From UHGV virus genome UHGV-0119144: DNA of 18,430 nt; one strand, 5' to 3'. The DNA is from a virus. The notes under the pieces were generated by a model. The model saw nothing but the letters and a program-made list of their open reading frames with translations, did no database searches and was not told where the DNA came from. Both the position numbers and the translations under genes were made by a program. Shown piece by piece: positions 4,276-18,430 of the stretch; position 1 is the first letter of the stretch; every line of letters begins with the position of its first letter.

Positions 4276-7200
4276 CTATATTTTTCCGCCTACGTCTTTA
4301 AACTTCTCAATAAACGAGACGATTTTCTGGAAAACTGCCTGTTTTTTCGTTTTATATTGCGGATTTAACGGACTAAGTTTTGGTAATGTTTCGTTTAATT
4401 CTGTGCCATTTTCGGTGGCATATTTGCGTTTTAAAGATGTGCGAATATAGCGTTTTGCTGCATCTTCATTGAGATTTTCTTCTTTAATCAACGCTTCTGC
4501 TTCACGTAGCTGTTCGTGTTGAGCAAAGGTAAAGAACGCGTCAATGATGCTGGCTTTGTCTGGTAAATCATCCAGGTTCGTTTGCTGAATAAAATCGACC
4601 ACCAGGCCCTCTTTCGCCCGGTTCCCCAGGCTTGAACGAATTAAGCGTTTGACCTCTTCGATCATTTCGCCCTTGCCTTTATTTTGTCTGTTATGTTCGA
4701 AAATCAGTCCAAGGATATAATCCAGGTTTATTTCCTGAGATTTCAGCAAATCGACCTCAAAAACTACGTCATCCCAGTCAGTGGTTGATTTCTCTTTTTT
4801 CTCAGCTTCTTTCTCACGGCGCTGCCAGTCGCGAATATCGTTATAGGCAGAACGATAATCCTGAATCTTGCGATCAGCAGGGAGACGAATTGTTTGCAAT
4901 TCAGCGAACTTTTCATCATCCACATAATGTTCTGCTTTGAATTTTTCTACCGCAACAGGATCGCTAAGATCGATTTGTTGCAGGGCTTTTAGCGTGGCAA
5001 ATTCATCATAGTTTTGCAGGATGTTCTCGGCACGCAGGTATTCGCCAAACAGTTTAACGAAGTCTTTCTTCTCTTTTTCACTTTCAATACTGGCAGGGTC
5101 AGGGAACCGTTGTTCCAGTTCTGAAACTACTGTCATGAAGCCGCGTTTAGCTTCACCTGTAGCAGCATCAGTAAAGCCTTCCATATACTCTGTATAACTC
5201 TTTTCTAACACCACATTTTTGGTGTTTTTGTCACCAAACAGCGTTATGGCATCAATAGTTGAGCGTTCCAGATCCCGGAAAGTGACGATATTACCGAAGG
5301 TTTTAGTTGCATCATAAATACGGTTGGTGCGGGAAAATGCCTGCATCAGGCCGTGAAAACGCAAGTTTTTATCGACGAATAGCGTGTTCAATGTTGGAGC
5401 ATCGAAGCCGGTTAAAAACATCCCCACGACAATTAGCAGATCGATATCCTGATTTTTAACCCGCTGGGCTAAATCACGATAGTAGTTCTGAAAACCGTTA
5501 CTGTCGGTGCTAAAGTTAGTTTTAAAATGGCTGTTATATTCACGAATTGCAGCGTCCAGAAACTCTTTAGCACTGCTGTCCATTGCGCTGGTATCAAAAG
5601 TTTCATCGGAAATTTCACCAATGGCATTTTGTTCTTCATTGGCGGCAAAGGAGAAGATTGTCGCAATACGCAGCGGTTTATAGGTAGCCGATTTATTAGC
5701 GGCTTCTTCTTGTAACCGTTTAAACGTCGCATAATAGGCTTTCGCGGCATCCACGCTGCTCACTGCCAGCATGGCATTAAAGCCTTTGGAGCCTGGGAAG
5801 GTACGGTGGGTTTTCTGGCGGAAGTTGTTCAGGATATATTGCGTGATTTCCTGAATACGCATGGGATGAAGAAACGCCTGCTGATTTTCAGCCGCACTTA
5901 GTTTTTTCTCGTCAGTTTCTGTCTCTAAAGACTTAAACTGTGGCCGCACATCGTTGTAGTCTACCTTGAATTTGAGCACTTTTTCGTCACGAATCGCATC
6001 GGTAATTACATACGAATGCAATTCACGACCAAATACGCTGGCGGTTGTTTCTGAGCCTAAGGCGTTTTCCGGGAAAATAGGGGTGCCGGTAAAACCAAAC
6101 TGATAATAGCGTTTGAATTTCTTCTTCAGGTTTTTCTGCGCTTCTCCAAACTGGCTGCGGTGGCATTCATCAAATATAAACACCACTTGCTGATTATATA
6201 CAGGCAGGTCGCTTTCTGCTTTCATCAGGTTATTGAGTTTCTGAATAGTGGTGACGATAATTTTGTTATCGTCCTTATCCAGATTTCGTTTAAGACCTGC
6301 GGTATTTTCCGAGCCGTTGACGCTGTCTGGCGAAAAACGCTGGTATTCCTTCATGGTCTGGTAATCGAGGTCTTTCCTGTCGACCACGAAGAAGACTTTA
6401 TCAATAAAGTCCAGTTCTGTTGCCAGACGCGCGGCTTTAAAGCTGGTCAGTGTTTTACCAGAACCGGTAGTGTGCCAGATAAAGCCACCGCTTTCGGGGT
6501 TAGACCAGTTTTTCGCTTTATAGGAGCTGTTGATTTTCCATAAGATTCGTTCGGTGGCGGCAATCTGGTACGGTCGCATCACCAGTAGCGTCTGACTACT
6601 GTCAAAAACGCTGTAGTTCACCAGAACATTCAGCAGAGTATGTTTCTGGAAAAAGGTAGCGGTAAAGTCTTTGAGGTCTTTAATCAGCGTGTTGTCTGAT
6701 TTCGCCCAATTCATGGTGAAGTCAAAACTGTTTTTATCGCGCTTTGTCGTGTTGGCAAAATAACGGGTATCGGTGCCGTTAGAAATGACAAACAGTTGCA
6801 GATACTTAAACAGGGAATTTTCGCTGTTAAAACTCTCTTTACTGTAACGATGTATCTGGTTGAAAGCCTCACGAATCGCCACCCCGCGTTTTTTTAGTTC
6901 GATTTGCACCAGCGGTAAACCATTAACCAGGATCGTGACGTCATAACGGTTAGCATGAGAACCCGTCTGTTCAAACTGCTGGATAATCTGCACCTTATTG
7001 CGCATGAGATTCTTTTTATCTATCAAATAGATGTTCTCAAGACGCTCGTCATCAAAAATAAAGTCGCAAATATAGTCGATATGGATTTTACGGGTCTTAT
7101 CCAGAATGCCATCACTCGGGTTGTCCAGATACTGCTCCGTGAAACGCCGCCATTCGCTGTCATTAAACACCACACCATTGAGGTTCTGAAGCTGTTCCCG

Positions 7201-7392
7201 AACGTTGGCCAGCATCGCCGACTGTGATTTTACGGGTATAAATTCATAGCCCTGATTTCGCAGGTCCTGAATCAGTTCCCGTTCCAGGTCCGATTCACTC
7301 TGATAGCTGTCGCCTGTTGGCTCAGCTTTGATGTACTTATCAAGAACGATAAAGTTATTGGATTCAGCAATGGTGTGTGTCTGATGAGTCAT
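4276..7392 (-). CDS. hsdR: Type I restriction enzyme R subunit (HsdR), type IC / EcoR124 family
   Basis: 1038 aa; PD-(D/E)xK nuclease motif ([18 protein letters not shown]), helicase motifs TGSGKT and FDECH; N-terminus [14 protein letters not shown] as in EcoR124-type HsdR. Confidence 0.95.
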
Positions 7393-7513
7393 AGCGCATC
7401 CTTTGTGCCGTCTGGCAAGGGCCGGAAGGGAGTTAAGGGCGACTTCCGGCGTGTAGAAAATAGTCTATATACTGACCGGATGTTAAGGTGGTCCGGTCTG
7501 TAAAAATGCTCAA

Positions 7514-8727
<1,214 letters not shown>

Positions 8728-8731
<4 letters not shown>

Positions 8732-10290
8732 TTCTGCACCTCGCAGCCTTCAATTTCAGCCACAATCGCATCAATATCTTTACGCAACTGGTCGATTTTG
8801 CTGACCGTGGTTTTCAGCTCTGCATTCAACTCAGCGATATTGATAATTTCGCGAGTATCTTTCGCTTCCACATAGCTGCTTACCGACAGGTTATAGTCAT
8901 TAGCGACAACGGCCTCAAACGTGACAGATTTTGCCAGATGAGCAACATCTTCCTTGCTGGAAAATACCTGCATAATCTGTTCGATATGGGCATCAGTCAG
9001 GATGTTGTTATTAGTCTCTTTTTTGAATAGCTCGCTGGCGTCAATAAACTGAACGTTGGTATCGGTTTTATGTTTAGACAGCACCAGAATATTGACGGCA
9101 ATGGTGGTGCCAAAGAACAGATTCGGTGCCAGTGAAATCACGGTTTCGACATAGTTATTGTCGACCAGATACTGACGGATTTTCTGCTCCGCACCGCCAC
9201 GGTAAAAAATACCCGGGAAGCAAACAATCGCAGCACGACCTTTGGCAGAAAGATAGTTCAGCGCATGTAATACAAACGCAAAGTCAGCTTTGGATTTGGG
9301 GGCCAGAACGCCAGCCGGGGCAAAACGTTCATCGTTAATCAGCGTCGGGTCATCGCTGCCAATCCATTTCACCGAATACGGCGGGTTAGAAACGATGGCA
9401 TCAAACGGTTTTTCATCTCTGAAGTGCGGTTCAGTCAGCGTATTGCCCAGCTTGATATCAAACTTGTCGTAGTTGATGTTGTGCAAAAACATGTTCATAC
9501 GCGCCAGGTTATAGGTCGTATGGTTGATTTCCTGACCAAAAAAACCTTCTTCGATGATATGGTCATCAAACTGTTTTTTAGCCTGCAACAACAGCGAACC
9601 GGAGCCTGCTGCCGGGTCGTAGATTTTGTTAACGTGGGTCTGCCCGTGCATAGCCAGTTGTGCAATCAGCTTAGAGACGTGCTGCGGTGTAAAGAACTCG
9701 CCGCCTGACTTACCGGCATTTGCCGCATAGTTAGAGATCAGGAACTCATAGGCATCACCGAACAGGTCAATCTGATGTTCGTTGAAGTCACCAAGTTTTA
9801 ACCCTTCAACCCCTTTCAGAACCGCAGCCAGGCGGGCATTTTTATCTTTAACGGTGTTACCCAGGCGGTTACTGGTGGTATCGAAATCAGCAAACAAACC
9901 TTTGATGTCTGCTTCTGAAGGGTAGCCGTAAGCAGAACTTTCGATAGCAACGAAGATGCTGTTTAAATCTGCGTTCAGTCTGTCATTGGTATTTGCTTTC
10001 GCAGCTACGTTGCAGAAAAGCTGACTTGGGTAGATGAAGTAGCCTTTGGTTTTGATGGCATCGTCTTTAATGTCATCAGTAATTACGCTGTCATCCAGTT
10101 TCGCATAACAGATGCTGTCATCACCGGCTTCAATATAGCTGGAAAAATTTTCGCTGATAAAACGGTAGAAAAGCGCGCCCAGAACGTATTGCTTAAAATC
10201 CCATCCATCGACCGAACCTCTGACATCGTTAGCAATTTGCCAGATTTGACGATGAAGCTCTGCACGTTGTTGAATACTTGTCATTTTCAT
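8728..10290 (-). CDS. hsdM: Type I N6-adenine DNA methyltransferase subunit (HsdM), type IC
   Basis: 520 aa; SAM-binding motif [10 protein letters not shown] and catalytic NPPY. Confidence 0.95.
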
Positions 10291-10466: not shown

Positions 10467-10688
10467 ATGCAATCCATTAACTTCCGTACCGCGCGCGGCA
10501 ACCTTTCTGAAGTGCTCAACAATGTTGAGGCCGGGGAAGAGGTTGAAATCACCCGCAGAGGCCGTGAGCCAGCAGTAATTGTCAGCAAGGCTACTTTTGA
10601 AGCCTACAAAAAAGCGGCGCTGGATGCTGAATTTGCATCCCTGTTTGACACCCTGGACTCCACCAACAAGGAACTGGTTAACCGATAA
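10467..10688 (+). CDS. phd: Phd antitoxin (Phd/YefM family), P1-type
   Basis: 73 aa, [49 protein letters not shown]; stop overlaps the doc start (TAATG). Confidence 0.95.
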
Positions 10689-11068
10689 TGAGGCATATAT
10701 CACCGGAAGAACTTATTGCGCTTCATGATGCGAATATAAACCGCTACGGCGGCCTGCCGGGAATGTCTGATCCGGGTAGGGCAGAGGCCATTATCGGGAG
10801 AGTTCAGGCCAGAGTTGCCTACGAAGAGATCACCGACCTTTTCGAAGTCTCCGCCACCTACCTGGTGGCTACGGCGAGAGGGCATATATTCAATGATGCC
10901 AATAAGCGTACCGCGCTAAACAGTGCGCTGCTATTTCTACGCCGTAACGGGGTGCAGGTATTTGATTCACCTGAACTGGCAGACCTTACTGTAGGCGCTG
11001 CGACTGGCGAGATATCTGTATCTTCTGTCGCCGACACGTTACGTAGATTGTATGGTTCTGCGGAGTAG
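10688..11068 (+). CDS. doc: Doc toxin (Fic-fold kinase), P1-type
   Basis: 126 aa with Fic motif HIFNDANKR. Confidence 0.95.
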
Positions 11069-11072
11069 ATTA

Positions 11073-11252
11073 ATGGCACGTAAATACAACAAATTGTCCC
11101 GTGAAGCGTTAAAGATGCTTCTTGATGGCGTGAGTCGCCGCGAGGTAAAGCAATACCTGGCTGGTAAGCAAATTGGTGCCAGGACCGCTATTGCTGTGTT
11201 ATGCCGTCAGGAAATGGTTGTGCTTAAACAGAGAATGCCGGGCAGCATATAA
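11073..11252 (+). CDS. Small basic hypothetical protein (occupies the P1 pdcA position)
   Basis: 59-aa ORF starting 4 nt after the doc stop: MARKYNKLSREALKMLLDGVSRREVKQYLAGKQIG. The track's longer version (11052) overlaps doc. Confidence 0.4.
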   Translation: MARKYNKLSREALKMLLDGVSRREVKQYLAGKQIGARTAIAVLCRQEMVVLKQRMPGSI

Positions 11253-11279
11253 AGCCCAATCAGTGATTAAAGGTGTGAT

Positions 11280-12323
11280 GTGAAAGCCGTAATTACTCCC
11301 TTTGTACAGAAAGAACTTGGCCTCGCCACGTTCAAAGTGGATCAGGAGGTCAGAAAGCTGGTGGAGGCTGGCCGTAAATTTATTATGGAGCCGGTGCCGC
11401 GTGAGTTAATCGAGCACATGGACGACGGCCTCGTTGCTTCCGAGCAAACTATAGCAACAAATGAGGCGTTGCAGCCGTTTTTTAACAGCGATGAACTGTT
11501 TCGCCGTATTGGTGGAATTGACGCGCTGGTGGCGTGGTTGCGCAGGAAAGAGGGGCAATGCCAGGCCGCAGATCGTAGCTGGTGTGACAACCATATTGTC
11601 CACGCTGAACGAGACAATAGCGCGGTGTTGTTGTGCTGGCATCACGATAACCATTACCGGATGCGTGGTTTTAATGAGCTGAAAGAAACGCTGCACAATA
11701 ATCGCGTTAACTGGATACTGGATGTCGCCCGTCAGGAAATGGGCCTTTCAGATAGCCATGATTTAAGTATTCAGGAGCTGTGCTGGTGGGCTTTCATGCG
11801 TAACATGATGCACCTGATGCCGGAAGAAGTCTGCCGCATATCAATAAATAAGATGAAGGCTGCTCCGCAGGATAGCGGACCTCTGAAAGAGGCGGATATT
11901 CGCCCGTATGACGATCGCGCTACAGCATATGTTCAGATGATGGAAGAACGCGCCGCGCCGATGCGTGCAAAAGTATGCCCTGTGGATGTTGACTCCGACC
12001 CAGGTATGGCGCATTTCAAAATACCAAAACTTCAATCGCTAAAATTGCCCGAGTACATGGACTTTGTGGCTTCCCGTCCATGCTGTGGCTGTGGAGCTGC
12101 GGGAGCTGGCGCTCACATTACGCCTTATATCGTTCGTCATAGTCGATTATGCGCGCATGACATTTACGCAATTCCTCTGTGCCAGTCATGCCAGCGTGAT
12201 ATTGAGCGTGACCGCGATAATTGGGAGAAGACGCACGGTAGGCTGGCGATGCATCAACGATTGTTCTTTGATTACGCGCTTGGAGTCGGCGCTATCACAA
12301 GTTACTCGTCGAGCGTTAGATAA
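11280..12323 (+). CDS. Cys/His-rich hypothetical protein (occupies the P1 pdcB position)
   Basis: 347-aa ORF, GTG start behind AAGGTG; metal-ligand-like clusters [15 protein letters not shown]...CWHHDNH and C-terminal CCGCGAAG...LCAHD...CQSCQRD. Confidence 0.5.
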
Positions 12324-12324
12324 A

Positions 12325-12341
12325 ATTGCTCTAATGTATTG
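12325..12341 (+). promoter_or_regulatory. P1 C1 operator-like site (14/17), with an overlapping partial repeat ATTGCTAT
   Basis: attgctctaatgtattg immediately after the stop at 12321-12323; followed by inverted repeat gattag/ctaatc around TTGACA (12376-12398). Confidence 0.5.
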
Positions 12342-12411
12342 CTATTTCTTTAATCGATGGTATTATATTCCACGTTGATTAGTTGACATGGGCTAATCAG
12401 TAGGTGACAGG

Positions 12412-12726
12412 ATGTTACTTAACTGGCAGGGACGCCACTTCATGGAAATAAATCACTCACGAATAACATCGTACGAGATTGCGAATTACATGATCCGCAC
12501 TAAATCTCTTCTATCAGCGAAAGAACTCGCAGCAATTCTTGAAAAGGAATACCCGCATCTGGATGTCGATAAGCGCGATGTTTATCTGCGCTTAAAAGCT
12601 ATCGCTGTGTCTAAGTATTCGTCTGTTTTGATTGATGACAGTACGAACGAAAGCGTGAAAATAACTGGTCAGTGCTGGAAGCAGCTGAATTCATCGAGGC
12701 GCATGGCGGGAAAGTGCCGCCCCTGA
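12412..12726 (+). CDS. Hypothetical protein (alternative start ATG 12442); possible late-activator (lpa-position) gene
   Basis: ORF downstream of an operator; no domain recognised; overlaps the next ORF by 55 nt. Confidence 0.3.
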
Positions 12727-13043
12727 TGCTGGAGCAAATCAAAGCCGATCTGCGTGCTCCTAAGACCAATACCGATGATGAGGAAAGGCAAACAGCCGTC
12801 GGTGGCCCTTCTCTTGAAGATCTGGACAAAGTTGCGCGAGAACGGGCCGCCAACCGCCGCGCCGATGCCGCATTGTGGATTGAGCAGCGTAGGGAAGAAA
12901 TCGCCGATATCGTTGATACAGGCGGTTATGGAGATGTTGATACTGAAGGTGTATCAAACGACCCATGGCTGGAACAAGACCTGGACGAAGACGAGGAGGA
13001 AGACGAAGAAGTTACCCGCAAGCTATACGGGGATGATGATTAA
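12672..13043 (+). CDS. Acidic protein translationally coupled to terminase large subunit (possible small-subunit remnant)
   Basis: GTG start; C-terminus [12 protein letters not shown]...DDD; stop overlaps the ATG of the next gene (TAATG). No cluster of TGATCA/G pac hexamers seen in 12300-13100. Confidence 0.35.
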
Positions 13044-14956
13044 TGGCCAGAAGTTGCGTAACGGATCCACGTTGGCGCGAGCTGGTGGCGCTATATCGTT
13101 ATGACTGGATTGCGGCCGCTGATGTTTTGTTCGGCAAAACACCTACCTGGCAGCAGGATCTGATTATTGAGTCTGTGCAGGAACAGGGTAGCAAGACATC
13201 TGTTTCGTCTGGTCACGGTACCGGGAAATCAGACATGACTTCTATCATGATCATGTTGTTCATAATCATGTATCCCGGTGCCCGCGCCATTATCGTTGCG
13301 AACAAAATTCAGCAGGTAATGACCGGTATATTCAAGTACATCAAGATAAACTGGGCTACTGCCACCAGCCGTTTTCCATGGCTTGCTGATTATTTTGTTC
13401 TGACAGAAACCGCTTTCTATGAGGTTACTGGTTGGATTTGCCCCTATATTTCCAGACACCTGTTATCACTTAACCCATTACTGGCTTGCTGCCGTAGATA
13501 TTCCCGTGGCGAGCGATAACCCAGTGCACTATGCGGATGCCATTCGTTATAATGCTCGAACGCCTCTGCAAGGTTCTTTGCTGCCGTTAACCCGTCTGGT
13601 TTGGGCATGACACTGATGTAGTCACGCTTTATCGTTTTCACGAAGCTCTCTGCTATGCCGTTACTCTCCGGACTCCGCACCGCCGTGCTCTTCGGTTCAA
13701 GCCCCAACATCCGGGCAAACTGCCGTGTTTCATTAGCCCGGTAGCATGAACCATTATCCGTCAGCCACTCTACTGGAGACGCCGGAAGCTCGTTGCCGAA
13801 GCGGCGTTCCACCGCTCCCAGCATGACGTCCTGTACTGTTTCACTGTTGAAGCCGCCCGTAGTGACCGCCCAGTGCAGTGCCTCACGGTCACAGCAGTCC
13901 AGCGCGAACGTGACTCGCAGTTTTTCTCCGTTATCACAGCGGAACTCGAACCCGTCAGAGCACCATCGCTGATTACTTTCTTTCACAGCCACTCTGCCTG
14001 TATGTGCCCGTTTCGATGGCGGTACAGCAGGTTTTCGCTCAAGCAACAGCGCATTCTGGCGCATGATCCGGTAAACACGTTTGGCATTGATCGCAGGCAT
14101 ACCATCAAGTTCTGCCTGTCTGCGAAGCAGCGCCCATAACAGTGAGGAATCACCGCTGGTAACGTCAGAATTTATCAAAATGAAGCTGGCGGAGTACGGC
14201 GGGCGTGATAACCCTATGTACATGATTAAGGTACGCGGCCTATTCCCTAAATTACAGGACGGCTTCCTTCTTGGACGTGATGAGGTTGAACGTGCGACGC
14301 GGCGGAAAGTCAAGATTGCCAAAGGATGGGGCTGGCTTGCATGTGTGGACGTTGCTGGTGGTACAGGACGGGATAAGTCCTTTATCAATATCATGATGGT
14401 GTCCGGCCAGCGAAATAAACGCCGTGTAATCAACTATCGAATGCTGGAATACACAGACGTTACAGAAACGCAGCTTGCCGCCAAAATTTTCGCAGAATGT
14501 AATCCTGAGCGATTCCCCAATATCACCATAGCGATAGACGGCGATGGCCTGGGTAAAGCAACGGCGGATCTGATGTACGAGTATTATGGTATTACCGTAC
14601 AGCGTATACGCTGGGGTAAAAAGATGCATAGCCGTGAAGATAAGAGCCTGTACTTTGATAAACGTGCTTATGCCAACGTTCAAGCCGCAGAGGCCGTAAA
14701 ATCTGGTCGTATGAGACTGGATAAGGGTAATGAAACTATTGAGGAAGCGTCGAAAATCCCTGTAGGGATTAACTCCGCAGGTCAATGGAAGGTGATGAGT
14801 AAGGAGGATATGAAGAAAAAACTCAACCTGCACTCACCAGACCATTGGGATACATATTGTTTCGCTATGCTGGCGGATTATGTTCCCCAGGACGAAGTGC
14901 TTAGCGTCGAAGACGAAGCGCAGGTTGATGAAGCTCTGGCATGGCTTAATGAATAA
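13043..14956 (+). pseudogene. Terminase large subunit (PacB-like) interrupted by an IS2 fragment
   Basis: N-terminal 130 codons (13043-13432) carry a deviant Walker A (SSGHGTGKS); C-terminal part (about 14139-14956) is terminase-like. The two parts are separated by 706 bp of IS2 and are not joinable in frame. Confidence 0.55.
13433..14138 (-). mobile_element. insD: IS2 (IS3 family) 3' fragment: right terminal region plus C-terminal ~230 codons of insD
   Basis: Minus-strand translation 13444-14136 matches IS2 InsD from [28 protein letters not shown] to NRCLEI; IS2 terminus TGGATTTGCCCCTATATTTCCAGACACCTG at 13433. insC and the left end are absent. Confidence 0.88.
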
Positions 14957-14959
14957 ACA

Positions 14960-14976
14960 CTTGCTCTAATAAATTG
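14960..14976 (+). promoter_or_regulatory. P1 C1 operator-like site (15/17), Op51-like position upstream of immI
   Basis: cttgctctaataaattg, 4 nt after the terminase stop. Confidence 0.55.
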
Positions 14977-15107
14977 TGTTTTTTGACTGCCGATGTTACA
15001 TTGAACCTGACCTCTTGCGCCTTGAGGCATTTTCGGTTTATGCTTATCAGGCACCTCATTAAAACGGGTGCCGGGATTGAGACCCCGGATAATGTCAAAG
15101 GCGACAC

Positions 15108-15130
15108 AGACGCCGAAAGCGTCTTTTTTT
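15108..15130 (+). terminator. Rho-independent terminator / attenuator inside the immI leader
   Basis: Stem agacgc / gcgtct with loop cgaaa, followed by a T7 run. Confidence 0.6.
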
Positions 15131-15315
15131 GTGTCATGCCATCGCACAGCCATACGTAGCGTTTAGCTCCGAAATCAATGGTAGTGCTGGCTGGGCTGCC
15201 GAAAGGCAGGCCGGTTCCCTTTGACGCCGGTAGTCTCAACCCAGTCAGTGCTACCGCCATTGAGATTGAGACCTCACGCGGTAGCTCCTTAACTTAGTCA
15301 AAGGAGGCTGCCATT

Positions 15316-15537
15316 ATGGCTACTGTCCCTACCCCAATTCATCCTGAATTTATCTGGCGCTTTTACTCCTGCCAAAAACGTCACTATCACTTCGTTATTG
15401 CACCGACAGAAGATGAGGCCCATTCTCAGCTTCCTGACGCTCCCTGCATTTTCTCTGCCCGCTTTTCAACCGATTTGCGCAATTCTCTCAGTTACTGGTG
15501 CCTCCCTGTTAACGCTTCTGCTCAGGAGGGACTATGA
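15316..15537 (+). CDS. Icd-like small protein (73 aa), translationally coupled to ant
   Basis: AAGGAGG RBS; stop overlaps the ant start (ATGA); size and position match P1 icd. Sequence identity not confirmed from memory. Confidence 0.45.
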   Translation: MATVPTPIHPEFIWRFYSCQKRHYHFVIAPTEDEAHSQLPDAPCIFSARFSTDLRNSLSYWCLPVNASAQEGL

Positions 15538-16648
15538 GAACGTCATTAGTTACCCGTGAAGAGATGATCGAGGCAATTGAACAGCACACTGCCTGTATCA
15601 GTACTAGGGATATACCGGGCGTTATTGCCAACTACTTCATGATCACCAAACAACTTTACCGGAGAAAGGACAAGAACGCAGTTCACCGCATCCTGCTGTC
15701 TGATATCCGCGAATACCTGCTCGAACAGGGGCATCTGAATTACGCAACCGTCGCAGCCGAAGCACGCAAGGAGGCACACAGAATGAAAGCTACTAACGTT
15801 AAATCAGAAAAAGTTCATGCACCTTCAGTTCAGGAATCAGAGCTGGTGGTTGTTCAAAATCAGTCGGATGAAATTCCCGTTCTGGAGTGGCAGGGAGTGC
15901 GTGTCGTAACAACCGAAACTCTTGCTAAGGGGTATGGTACAGAAGCGATTCGCATTCGCCAGAATCATCATGAGAACAAAGTACGCTTTGTTGAAGCGAA
16001 GCACTTTTTCAAGGTTATTGGCGATGAGCTGAAAAATTTGCGGGTAGCTTTAAACTACTCACAAAATCCAGTCTCCCCCAAAGCGCGCTCTCTCATCCTC
16101 TGGACAGAACGAGGAGCTGCCCGTCACGCTAAAATGCTCGAAACCGATCAGGCATGGGCATTCTTTGAAAAACTGGAAGACAGCTACTTCCGACAAAAAG
16201 AACAGCAACCGGTCGCAATCCCCCAGACGCTTCCAGAAGCTCTGCGCCTGGCTGCCGAGTTAGCTGAACAAAAGCAACTTCTGGAACAGAAAGCCCACCA
16301 GCTAAATCAGCAGCTGGTGGCTGCCGCTTCTAAAGTCGATTTTGCCGACCGGGTATCAGTAGCTAAAGGGATCCTGATTGGGAATTTTGCAAAGGTCGTT
16401 GGACTTAAACAAAATGCGCTGTTTGCCTAGTTACGGGAGAACGGCATTCTGATAGCGTCCGGAGGCCGTAAAAATGTACCGTTCCAGCAGTACATCAACG
16501 CGGGTATTTCACGGTGAAAGAAGTGGTGCTGGATGATGAAGATGGCTACCAGATACGGTTGACGCCTCAATTAACGGGTAAAGGCCAGCAGTGGTTGACG
16601 CGTAAACTGCTCGATGCTGGCTTGTTAAAACCGGTGGCGGCTGAATAA
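15534..16648 (+). pseudogene. ant: Antirepressor (AntA/Bro-N-like core plus KilAC-type C-terminus) with nonsense and frameshift lesions
   Basis: Open to TAG at 16428-16430, sitting where KilAC proteins have an aromatic residue (LFA*LRENG). The downstream KilAC-like sequence continues in frame as ILIASGGRKNVPFQQYINAG, then shifts by one frame near 16502 into GYFTVKEVVLDDEDGYQIRLTPQLTGKGQQWLTRKLL. Confidence 0.6.
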
Positions 16649-16655
16649 TGGAAGA

Positions 16656-16686
16656 ATGCCCGGTTGATGCCGGGCATAATTTATTG
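16656..16686. terminator. Hairpin between convergent ant and c1; candidate bidirectional terminator
   Basis: Stem atgcccgg / ccgggcat with loop ttgatg, followed by AATTTATT. Confidence 0.45.
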
Positions 16687-17532
16687 CGCGCTTTCGGGGT
16701 TGTCGTTTACTGGCTGCCCCTTCTTGGTTTTACGGCTGCGCGTAACTGATGCGGCTGACTTAACCTTTTTCTCTTCGCGAGTGATGGCAATTTGTTTTTT
16801 TACATTTTCAATATCTGCCAGGCGATATATTTTTGCTTGCGGCCAGCGGTCGCAGATGATCGGTTCTATGGAGTCATAAAGGCTAAATTTTGCTTTTTCG
16901 AATTCACCGTTGATGATAATTCCATCACGGAGAGTTTCATCGCAGATAAACACGCCACACAGTGGCACATGGTAACTAACTGATTTACCATCATTGTAGT
17001 TAGGGCTACTGGAAATGTAGTGGACGCGCAGCATTGTTTCGCTAAAGCCGTGTACGCGCATACGGAATTTTTCATCCTCCGGGTACTGCTTCATTAGCTC
17101 TTTTGTTGCTTCCAGGTTCTCTATGTATTTCGCACTGTGCTCATTGATCCCCGCGCTTTTTTGGATGCGAATGTCCTTATCAATCAGATGAATAATGCGG
17201 CCAGCGGTCATGTTGACGCTGTTCACAGCTTCTGTCTGATAAGTTGTAACCTTACGCACACCGCGAAGGATGTTAGGCACTGGATATAAAATAGTCTTTG
17301 GGATATTGAGGTCTGGGTACTGTTCCAGTTCCCGCGCCATTAAAGTCCATTTATCAATTTCAGCCTGAATGCTGTCAGTTTCTTTGAACGGTAGAACGAC
17401 AACCGGGCGTACAGGACGACCGTCGCTGGCTGTATCAACGTGTTGGGCGCGTGCAACAGCTTTTTTTAGAAAGAGATCCCTGAAGCTGACGAACTCCTGG
17501 TACAGTTGTTCGCCGTAGACATAATTTATCAT
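16681..17532 (-). CDS. c1: P1 C1 repressor of lysis
   Basis: 283 aa, MINYVYGEQLYQEFVSFRDLFLKKAVARAQHV...; strong RBS GGAGGAGG; TATAAT in the upstream intergenic region. Confidence 0.95.
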   Translation of the reverse strand: MINYVYGEQLYQEFVSFRDLFLKKAVARAQHVDTASDGRPVRPVVVLPFKETDSIQAEIDKWTLMARELEQYPDLNIPKTILYPVPNILRGVRKVTTYQTEAVNSVNMTAGRIIHLIDKDIRIQKSAGINEHSAKYIENLEATKELMKQYPEDEKFRMRVHGFSETMLRVHYISSSPNYNDGKSVSYHVPLCGVFICDETLRDGIIINGEFEKAKFSLYDSIEPIICDRWPQAKIYRLADIENVKKQIAITREEKKVKSAASVTRSRKTKKGQPVNDNPESAQ

Positions 17533-17626
17533 TGATCCTCCTCCAGAATTGACATGGTCAATAACGCCCGGCTGAGAAAACCGGTCATTACTGACCTATA
17601 TTATAGAGGGATCAAACGAAAATAAT

Positions 17627-17643
17627 AGATTTATTAGTGCATT
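17627..17643 (-). promoter_or_regulatory. C1 operator-like site (14/17) in the coi-c1 intergenic region (Op99-like)
   Basis: Reverse complement aatgcactaataaatct; an adjacent overlapping partial repeat follows. Confidence 0.5.
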
Positions 17644-17852
17644 TATTGTGAGTCTAACTGGTTAGTTGCCATGAGATATTCGATTGTGTCAGTGAGGTCA
17701 TCCAGGTCGTCTTGGGTGATGCGGTACTCCTGATTGGATATCTTTGAGTAGTGTTCAGCAATGGCGCGGGCTGCGTCGGTTTCGGCAGGGTCTACAGATA
17801 AAGCGTTAGAGCAATGTCTAACGTCGTCGATGGTTGGTTGAATGAAAGCCAT
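17643..17852 (-). CDS. coi: Coi, C1 inactivator
   Basis: 69 aa, MAFIQPTIDDVRHCSNALSVDPAETDAARAIAEHYSKISNQEYRITQDDLDD; directly upstream of c1 on the same strand. Confidence 0.9.
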   Translation of the reverse strand: MAFIQPTIDDVRHCSNALSVDPAETDAARAIAEHYSKISNQEYRITQDDLDDLTDTIEYLMATNQLDSQ

Positions 17853-17971
17853 AATTATGCCTCACTGTATTGACAACACAGAGCCTGAAGCTCTGACCTA
17901 CTGTTTCACCCATGATCCATGCTGGGGTAATCTAACAACATTGCGCTGTGTGTAAGATGAGCAATGCATAG

Positions 17972-18430
<459 letters not shown>

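Follow-up and report, generated by a model that had tools for sequence, protein, structure and literature searches.

How did the terminase large subunit gene of a P1-like phage-plasmid come to be split by an incomplete copy of IS2, and was the event that truncated the insertion sequence also the one that cost the element its packaging? These questions are raised by a locus in the virus genome UHGV-0119144, a stretch of 18,430 nucleotides that we refer to, at its full length, as the window. An earlier note on this DNA had read the locus as an IS2 insertion followed by an IS-mediated deletion, which took away the left half of IS2 and part of the terminase gene and left the element unable to package.

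The window is colinear with the packaging and immunity segment of P1-like phage-plasmids of the RCS47/SJ46 type, with 97-99.6% nucleotide identity to phage RCS47 over the common parts; its nearest relative overall is plasmid A of E. coli H15 (NZ_CP010179). A type I restriction-modification (R-M) system is followed by phd-doc, pdcA, pdcB, an lpa remnant, a pacA remnant, the split pacB, immI, c1 and coi, the same order as in the intact RCS47 (Punavirus, FO818745), where it runs phd-doc-pdcA-pdcB-lpa-pacA-pacB-(immI: c4/icd/ant)-c1-coi. Outside the packaging genes, the following features were located:

4276-7392: hsdR of the type I R-M system
7514-8731: hsdS of the same system
8728-10290: hsdM of the same system
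15051-15129: isrK-like RNA (Rfam match, 60 bits)
15174-15261: C4 antisense RNA (Rfam match, 75 bits)
15534-16650: ant pseudogene, by comparison with RCS47 ant (372 aa)
16681-17532: c1 (NCBIfam phage_rep_C1, 1.9e-184)

Together, the isrK-like and C4 RNAs make up the regulatory RNA region of immI, which lies upstream of icd/ant. The P1-type genes for immunity and maintenance (c1, coi, c4 RNA and phd-doc) are thus all present in the order conserved with RCS47. In contrast, lpa, pacA, pacB and ant, which are intact in RCS47 (453, 1194 and 1485 nt for the first three), are all damaged in the window, which lacks the intact Lpa and packaging genes of a functional Punavirus. The lesions in ant, relative to RCS47, are a change of W299 from TGG to TGA, which ends the reading frame at 16430, and a 1-bp deletion near 16502; H15 plasmid A is identical to the window across ant. 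We take the window, which covers one segment of the plasmid, to come from a P1-like phage-plasmid sampled in a human-gut metagenome and in decay towards a plain plasmid. The left end of the contig (1-53) is, by its end sequence, an IS1 terminus, and the right end, from about 17972 to 18430, lies inside the IS5-like element ISKpn26.

The limits of pacB were set by colinearity with the 1485-nt pacB of RCS47. The gene starts with the ATG at 13043, which overlaps the pacA stop (TAATG), and runs to the end of its own stop codon at 14956, in agreement with the 13043-14956 span of the split gene in the earlier note. Two colinear blocks define the damage: window positions 12642-13432 correspond to 4343-5133 of the RCS47 locus (L001), and 14137-18299 to 5409-9572. 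Within pacB, these features were distinguished:

13043-13432, plus strand: pacB 5' fragment (nt 1-390, aa 1-130; phrog_2), 130/130 aa identical to RCS47 PacB
13428-13432: surviving copy of the target-site duplication, CTGGT, also single in the unoccupied site of RCS47
13433-14138, minus strand: IS2 remnant (IS2 nt 626-1331; rve/rve_3 Pfam matches), 706/706 identical to the IS2 of H15 plasmid A
13433-13473: the retained 41-bp right inverted repeat (IRR), its tip TGGATTTGCCCC at 13433
14137-14138: junction of a 907-bp deletion, with TA common to IS2 nt 626-627 (complement) and pacB nt 666-667
14139-14956, plus strand: pacB 3' fragment (nt 668-1485, aa 223-494; phrog_2), the nuclease-side half, 267/272 aa identical to RCS47 PacB

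Both fragments match phrog_2, the "terminase large subunit" profile, and are homologous to PacB. No Pfam model matches PacB, even as the intact protein, and a PDB sequence search with PacB gave nothing better than E~0.8. The 5' fragment retains the Walker A motif GHGTGKS, and its reading frame continues into IS2 as far as a stop at 13519, giving a product of 158 aa. Within the 3' fragment, gene callers report an ORF of 258 aa that begins with the ATG at 14180 and ends at 14956. As the earlier note had proposed, the two halves together are shorter than a full large subunit: they add up to 402 of 494 aa. Residues 131-222, including the Walker B-like LLYIIDEA, are missing, and no uninterrupted ORF of about 494 aa carrying both Walker motifs is present in the window. 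The halves had also been described as out of frame, and this holds for one state of the locus only. As they stand, the two pieces share a phase (13043 and 14138 each leave a remainder of 2 on division by 3, with a net difference of +429 = 3 x 143) and are separated by six in-frame stops, the first at 13517. Clean excision of the IS piece would leave a gap in pacB of 275-277 nt, which is out of frame, and the in-frame union of the halves that the earlier note had named as contrary to its reading does not come about.

Two chimeric reading frames arise from this arrangement. On the minus strand, a 329-aa ORF with a TTG start (13444-14433) joins the antisense of pacB to the InsD core, and on the plus strand PacB residues 1-130 continue by read-through of IS2 to give the 158-aa product (13043-13519). 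The PHROGs profile phrog_20197, which is exactly 158 positions long and is matched by PacB residues 1-130, may derive from this pacB/IS2 pseudogene product. A look-up of a 259-aa minus-strand ORF that spans the 907-bp deletion junction found it not on record, and a look-up of a 180-aa InsD fragment returned generic chromosomal IS2 copies only. For annotation purposes, the 158-aa, 180-aa and 258-aa "hypothetical proteins" at this locus are pseudogene fragments.

The insertion sequence was identified by its match over 706 bp, which at 100% identity is far beyond chance. As had been suggested, only the 3' 706 bp of the 1331-bp element (53%) is present, and it ends inside insD near 14138. IS2 is a member of the IS3 family in which insC and insD are joined by a -1 frameshift; the window is like it at nt 626-1331, whereas the left inverted repeat (IRL), insC (IS2 nt 92-457), the frameshift site and the first ~71 codons of insD, all present in the full element, are lacking. 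The remnant retains InsD residues ~72-301, including the DDE (rve) catalytic core, and encodes no complete OrfAB. Full IS2 is flanked by an IRL of 42 bp and an IRR of 41 bp (PMC3299598). The IRL was absent across the whole window, and no further IS2 sequence was found elsewhere in it. Because the remnant has one end only and no OrfAB, it should be immobile.

A truncated element in a single metagenomic contig could in principle be a product of assembly, the true plasmid carrying a full IS2 and the contig skipping 907 bp. The window is indeed one whole short-read contig (metaSPAdes, ENA ERZ1755946 NODE_586), and IS2 is a multicopy element that was matched in 4498 of 5426 E. coli genomes. The exact junction was also missing from all reference collections scanned: exact searches with 25-30 nt across the junction gave no matches in GTDB representative genomes, JGI metagenomes or IMG/VR, and BLAST against PLSDB and RefSeq complete E. 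coli genomes gave no record that covered it. However, both IS2 junctions recurred, within a stretch of 2577 bp identical to the window, in two more contigs:

ERZ915976 k127_8482, 18,172 bp: MEGAHIT contig from run ERR1620275, a human-gut metagenome (PRJEB15371)
Logan contig, 17,976 bp: from the same run, ERR1620275

Since three different assemblies (metaSPAdes, MEGAHIT and Logan) reproduce the junction, it is not assembler-specific, although all three may derive from one sample. Moreover, the joined points share 2 bp only, so that a de Bruijn (k-mer) graph would be unable to collapse them; the coverage of the contig is 183x; and the contig breaks at the true repeats that bound it (IS1 and IS5-like), not within the IS2 piece. 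A chimeric join is therefore highly improbable, and the collapse of a full-length IS2 during assembly, which the earlier note had named as a way in which its reading could fail, is not borne out. The deleted form is very probably real, and it may be either fixed or a subpopulation in the sample. All three assemblers read through the 706-bp IS2 piece, so other IS2 copies identical to it were apparently not abundant there.

The ancestral state of the locus is preserved in sequenced isolates. A full 1331-bp IS2 occupies the same position in pacB, in the same orientation, in three complete E. coli plasmids, which we call the siblings:

NZ_CP010179: H15 plasmid A
NZ_CP061751: plasmid of strain 2273-PO3, an O15:H12 strain from a sheep carcass, USA
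NZ_JBRAVH010000003: p22AR0118B, from human urine, New Zealand

The siblings share with the window an IRR/pacB junction, the ant pseudogene (annotated as frameshifted with an internal stop in 3/3), the context of type I R-M, phd-doc and pdcB, and a 1100-bp deletion between lpa and pacA that is described below. They differ from it in that they keep pacB nt 391-667, both copies of CTGGT and the whole of IS2, with an intact transposase and its programmed frameshift. In H15 plasmid A (L002), CTGGT is found on both sides of the element, at 5029-5033 and 6365-6369; the earlier note had called for a check of the 5-bp target duplication, and the second of the two copies is the one removed in the window. 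When positions 5740-6646 (907 bp) are cut from H15 plasmid A, the result is identical to window positions 10497-18231, 7735 bp with zero mismatches. The 907 bp break down into 625 bp of IS2, 5 bp for the second CTGGT and 277 bp of pacB. Because this single cut regenerates that part of the window exactly, IS2 was first inserted and then truncated by one deletion, and the proposed order of insertion followed by loss of the left half of the IS and part of pacB stands.

The IS2 copies at this site in the three siblings (L002 5034-6364; L003 and L004, both 6034-7364) are 6 to 38 SNPs apart, with nearly identical flanks. This divergence suggests gene conversion with other IS2 copies of each host.

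With the parent in hand, both breakpoints could be mapped on intact IS2 and P1-like pacB, as had been proposed. They fall between IS2 nt 625 and 626 and between pacB nt 667 and 668, i.e., 625 bp inside the IS and 282 bp outside of it. The parental sequences are GCGCCCATA followed by CCCGACG in IS2 and CACGCTTA followed by ACAGTGAGG in pacB, the break lying between the two parts in each case, and TA is the sole overlap. Within 100 bp on either side of each breakpoint, no direct repeats longer than 7 bp were found. Likewise, there were no IRL- or IRR-like ends at the breakpoints beyond chance, the best similarity being matched by 70-499 of 500 shuffles. The IRR/pacB junction is unaltered in the window. 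Five other contigs that appeared to share the pacB breakpoint at 14137 were rejected, since their pacB runs on upstream and only the homology to the window ends there.

The earlier note had attributed the deletion to the insertion sequence itself, and a transposase-dependent event, in which aberrant chemistry at or near the IRL took the left half of IS2 and the flanking pacB sequence, is not without grounds. The deletion crosses the boundary between IS and host at the IRL, the usual target of IS2 strand transfer (PMC3299598), adjacent deletions have been reported for elements of the IS3 family (PMC11708052), and the parent element in the siblings has an intact, frameshifted transposase. As in a classical IS-mediated adjacent deletion, host DNA beside the IS has been lost, and with it one of the two CTGGT copies. 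However, transposase-driven adjacent deletions start at the IS end and retain the IS (PMC11708052), whereas here the IS has lost 625 bp and one of its ends, neither breakpoint lies at an IS terminus, and the element was destroyed rather than kept. In IS2, the IRR is the sole donor end and the IRL the recipient (PMC3299598), and at this locus nothing has changed at the IRR donor end or in its flank. The absence of sequence resembling either IS end above chance at the breakpoints also argues against this explanation, which we regard as unlikely.

The 2-bp TA overlap, the lack of breakpoints resembling IS ends, the loss of the IRL and the intact IRR junction together favor illegitimate recombination independent of both RecA and transposase, by replication slippage or break-and-join, as the most likely origin of the 907-bp deletion, although IS2 transposase, or nicks near the IRL associated with the IS, may have played some part. 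A microhomology of 2 bp is near the expectation for a random junction and too short to point to one particular pathway, so that the mechanism of the deletion is something that we infer, as is the loss of function.

A longer path to the same junction would involve a second mobile element near IS2 nt 625 or pacB nt 667 that was later lost with the intervening DNA, through recombination, for instance, or an adjacent deletion of its own making. Related contigs do contain more insertions in this interval, one (L008) at pacB nt 567-569, and another (L007) has IS-associated inversions. However, the junction in the window contains neither foreign sequence nor an extra duplication, a single 907-bp deletion accounts for the window exactly, and a multi-step path uses more steps than the data need; we consider it very unlikely. 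The two contigs invoked here present further damage of their own. In L007 (GCA_013352285.1; 8693-9958), pieces of lpa, pacA and pacB are inverted beside an IS, and L008 (27-3887) holds a second IS3-family insertion, with genes carrying RVT_1 (reverse-transcriptase) and GIIM (group II intron maturase) domains among its transposase genes. Both are of the same lineage as the window and were damaged separately.

The 907-bp deletion did not strike an intact packaging module. Upstream of pacB, a 1100-bp gap relative to RCS47 separates the remnants of two further genes:

12412-12644, plus strand: lpa 5' remnant (nt 1-233 of 453), colinear with the RCS47 locus to 3245 and matching residues 15-78 only of Pfam BPP1_LPA
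12642-12644: junction of the 1100-bp deletion, with a 3-bp microhomology, TAC, joining lpa nt 233 to pacA nt 796
12645-13043, plus strand: pacA 3' remnant (~133 codons at the end of the gene, about nt 796-1194), matching 288-402 of 417 only in the phrog_1711 "terminase" profile

Read across the junction, the lpa remnant gives a fusion ORF of 104 aa, which stops at 12726 and diverges from Lpa after residue 78. The gap takes in lpa nt 234-453, encoding the C-terminal half of Lpa, as well as the late promoter LPpac, the IHF site and pacA nt 1-795, two thirds of the gene. When the positions of P1 features were taken from the AF234172 annotation and mapped onto the gap, all four P1 pac cleavage positions (pacA nt ~276-285) fell inside it. 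The window therefore offers the large subunit neither a complete partner PacA nor a pac site. The pacA remnant is annotated in the siblings as "terminase, missing N-terminus". Among 645 matching PLSDB records, the lpa-pacA junction occurred in two, both of them siblings with IS2 in pacB, and it was also found in p22AR0118B.

The earlier note had made the deletion responsible for the inability to package, and on this point it is not upheld. Because a full IS2 had already split pacB, and pac, LPpac and most of pacA were already gone, the 907-bp deletion is not the cause of the packaging defect. From the missing sequence, we infer that packaging was lost before it occurred; the 907-bp event would be a third lesion on a dead module. 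This damage fits the published decay of P1-like phage-plasmids, which turn into plasmids through gene loss (PMC10879196).

The three lesions can be placed in a partial order, with the 907-bp deletion last. We consider it probable that the locus passed through loss of the lpa-pacA segment, insertion of IS2 into pacB and then an illegitimate 907-bp deletion in a decaying phage-plasmid. In an ancestor, the 1100 bp between lpa and pacA were lost, and with them the pac site, LPpac, pacA nt 1-795 and the C-terminal half of Lpa. Either before or after this loss, IS2 entered pacB after nt 390 and duplicated the 5-bp CTGGT. In the plasmid sampled here, a single deletion then joined IS2 nt 626 to pacB nt 668, and took out the IRL, insC and the start of insD along with the second CTGGT and pacB codons 131-222 with LLYIIDEA. 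What it left of IS2 is a fossil, presumably immobile, that has the IRR as its one end and lacks an intact transposase. As packaging had already been abolished, this last deletion would probably have had no further phenotypic effect.

It may be asked whether the remnants are entirely neutral. The 258-aa C-terminal PacB protein is identical in all 18 contigs read, and those compared have differently broken pacB genes. This ORF might be kept and expressed with a function of its own, such as interference with incoming P1-like phages, or selection might have favored the loss of the active IS2 transposase for the stability that this gave the plasmid; we regard such readings as extremely improbable. 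Recent common ancestry and the choice of start codon by gene callers account for the recurrence of the 258-aa ORF just as well.

What the locus holds is an ordinary IS remnant in a terminase gene that has become a pseudogene on a defective P1-like plasmid. Events of this kind are known, and no new biological question arises from it. It does bear on annotation, in that the contig represents a defective P1-like plasmid and not an inducible phage. It is also a small, clean case of the stepwise decay of a packaging module, with an intermediate stage kept in sequenced isolates and an IS fossilized by a deletion that crossed its own end.

The backbone shared by the window and H15 plasmid A is not uniform in its divergence. 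The two differ by 54 SNPs, of which 52 are clustered in hsdM (8687-9736). The hsdS product has 405 aa in the window and 208 aa and 411 aa in siblings, and its sequence also differs. The specificity region of the R-M system (7514-9736) thus looks as if it had been swapped by recombination on an otherwise identical backbone.
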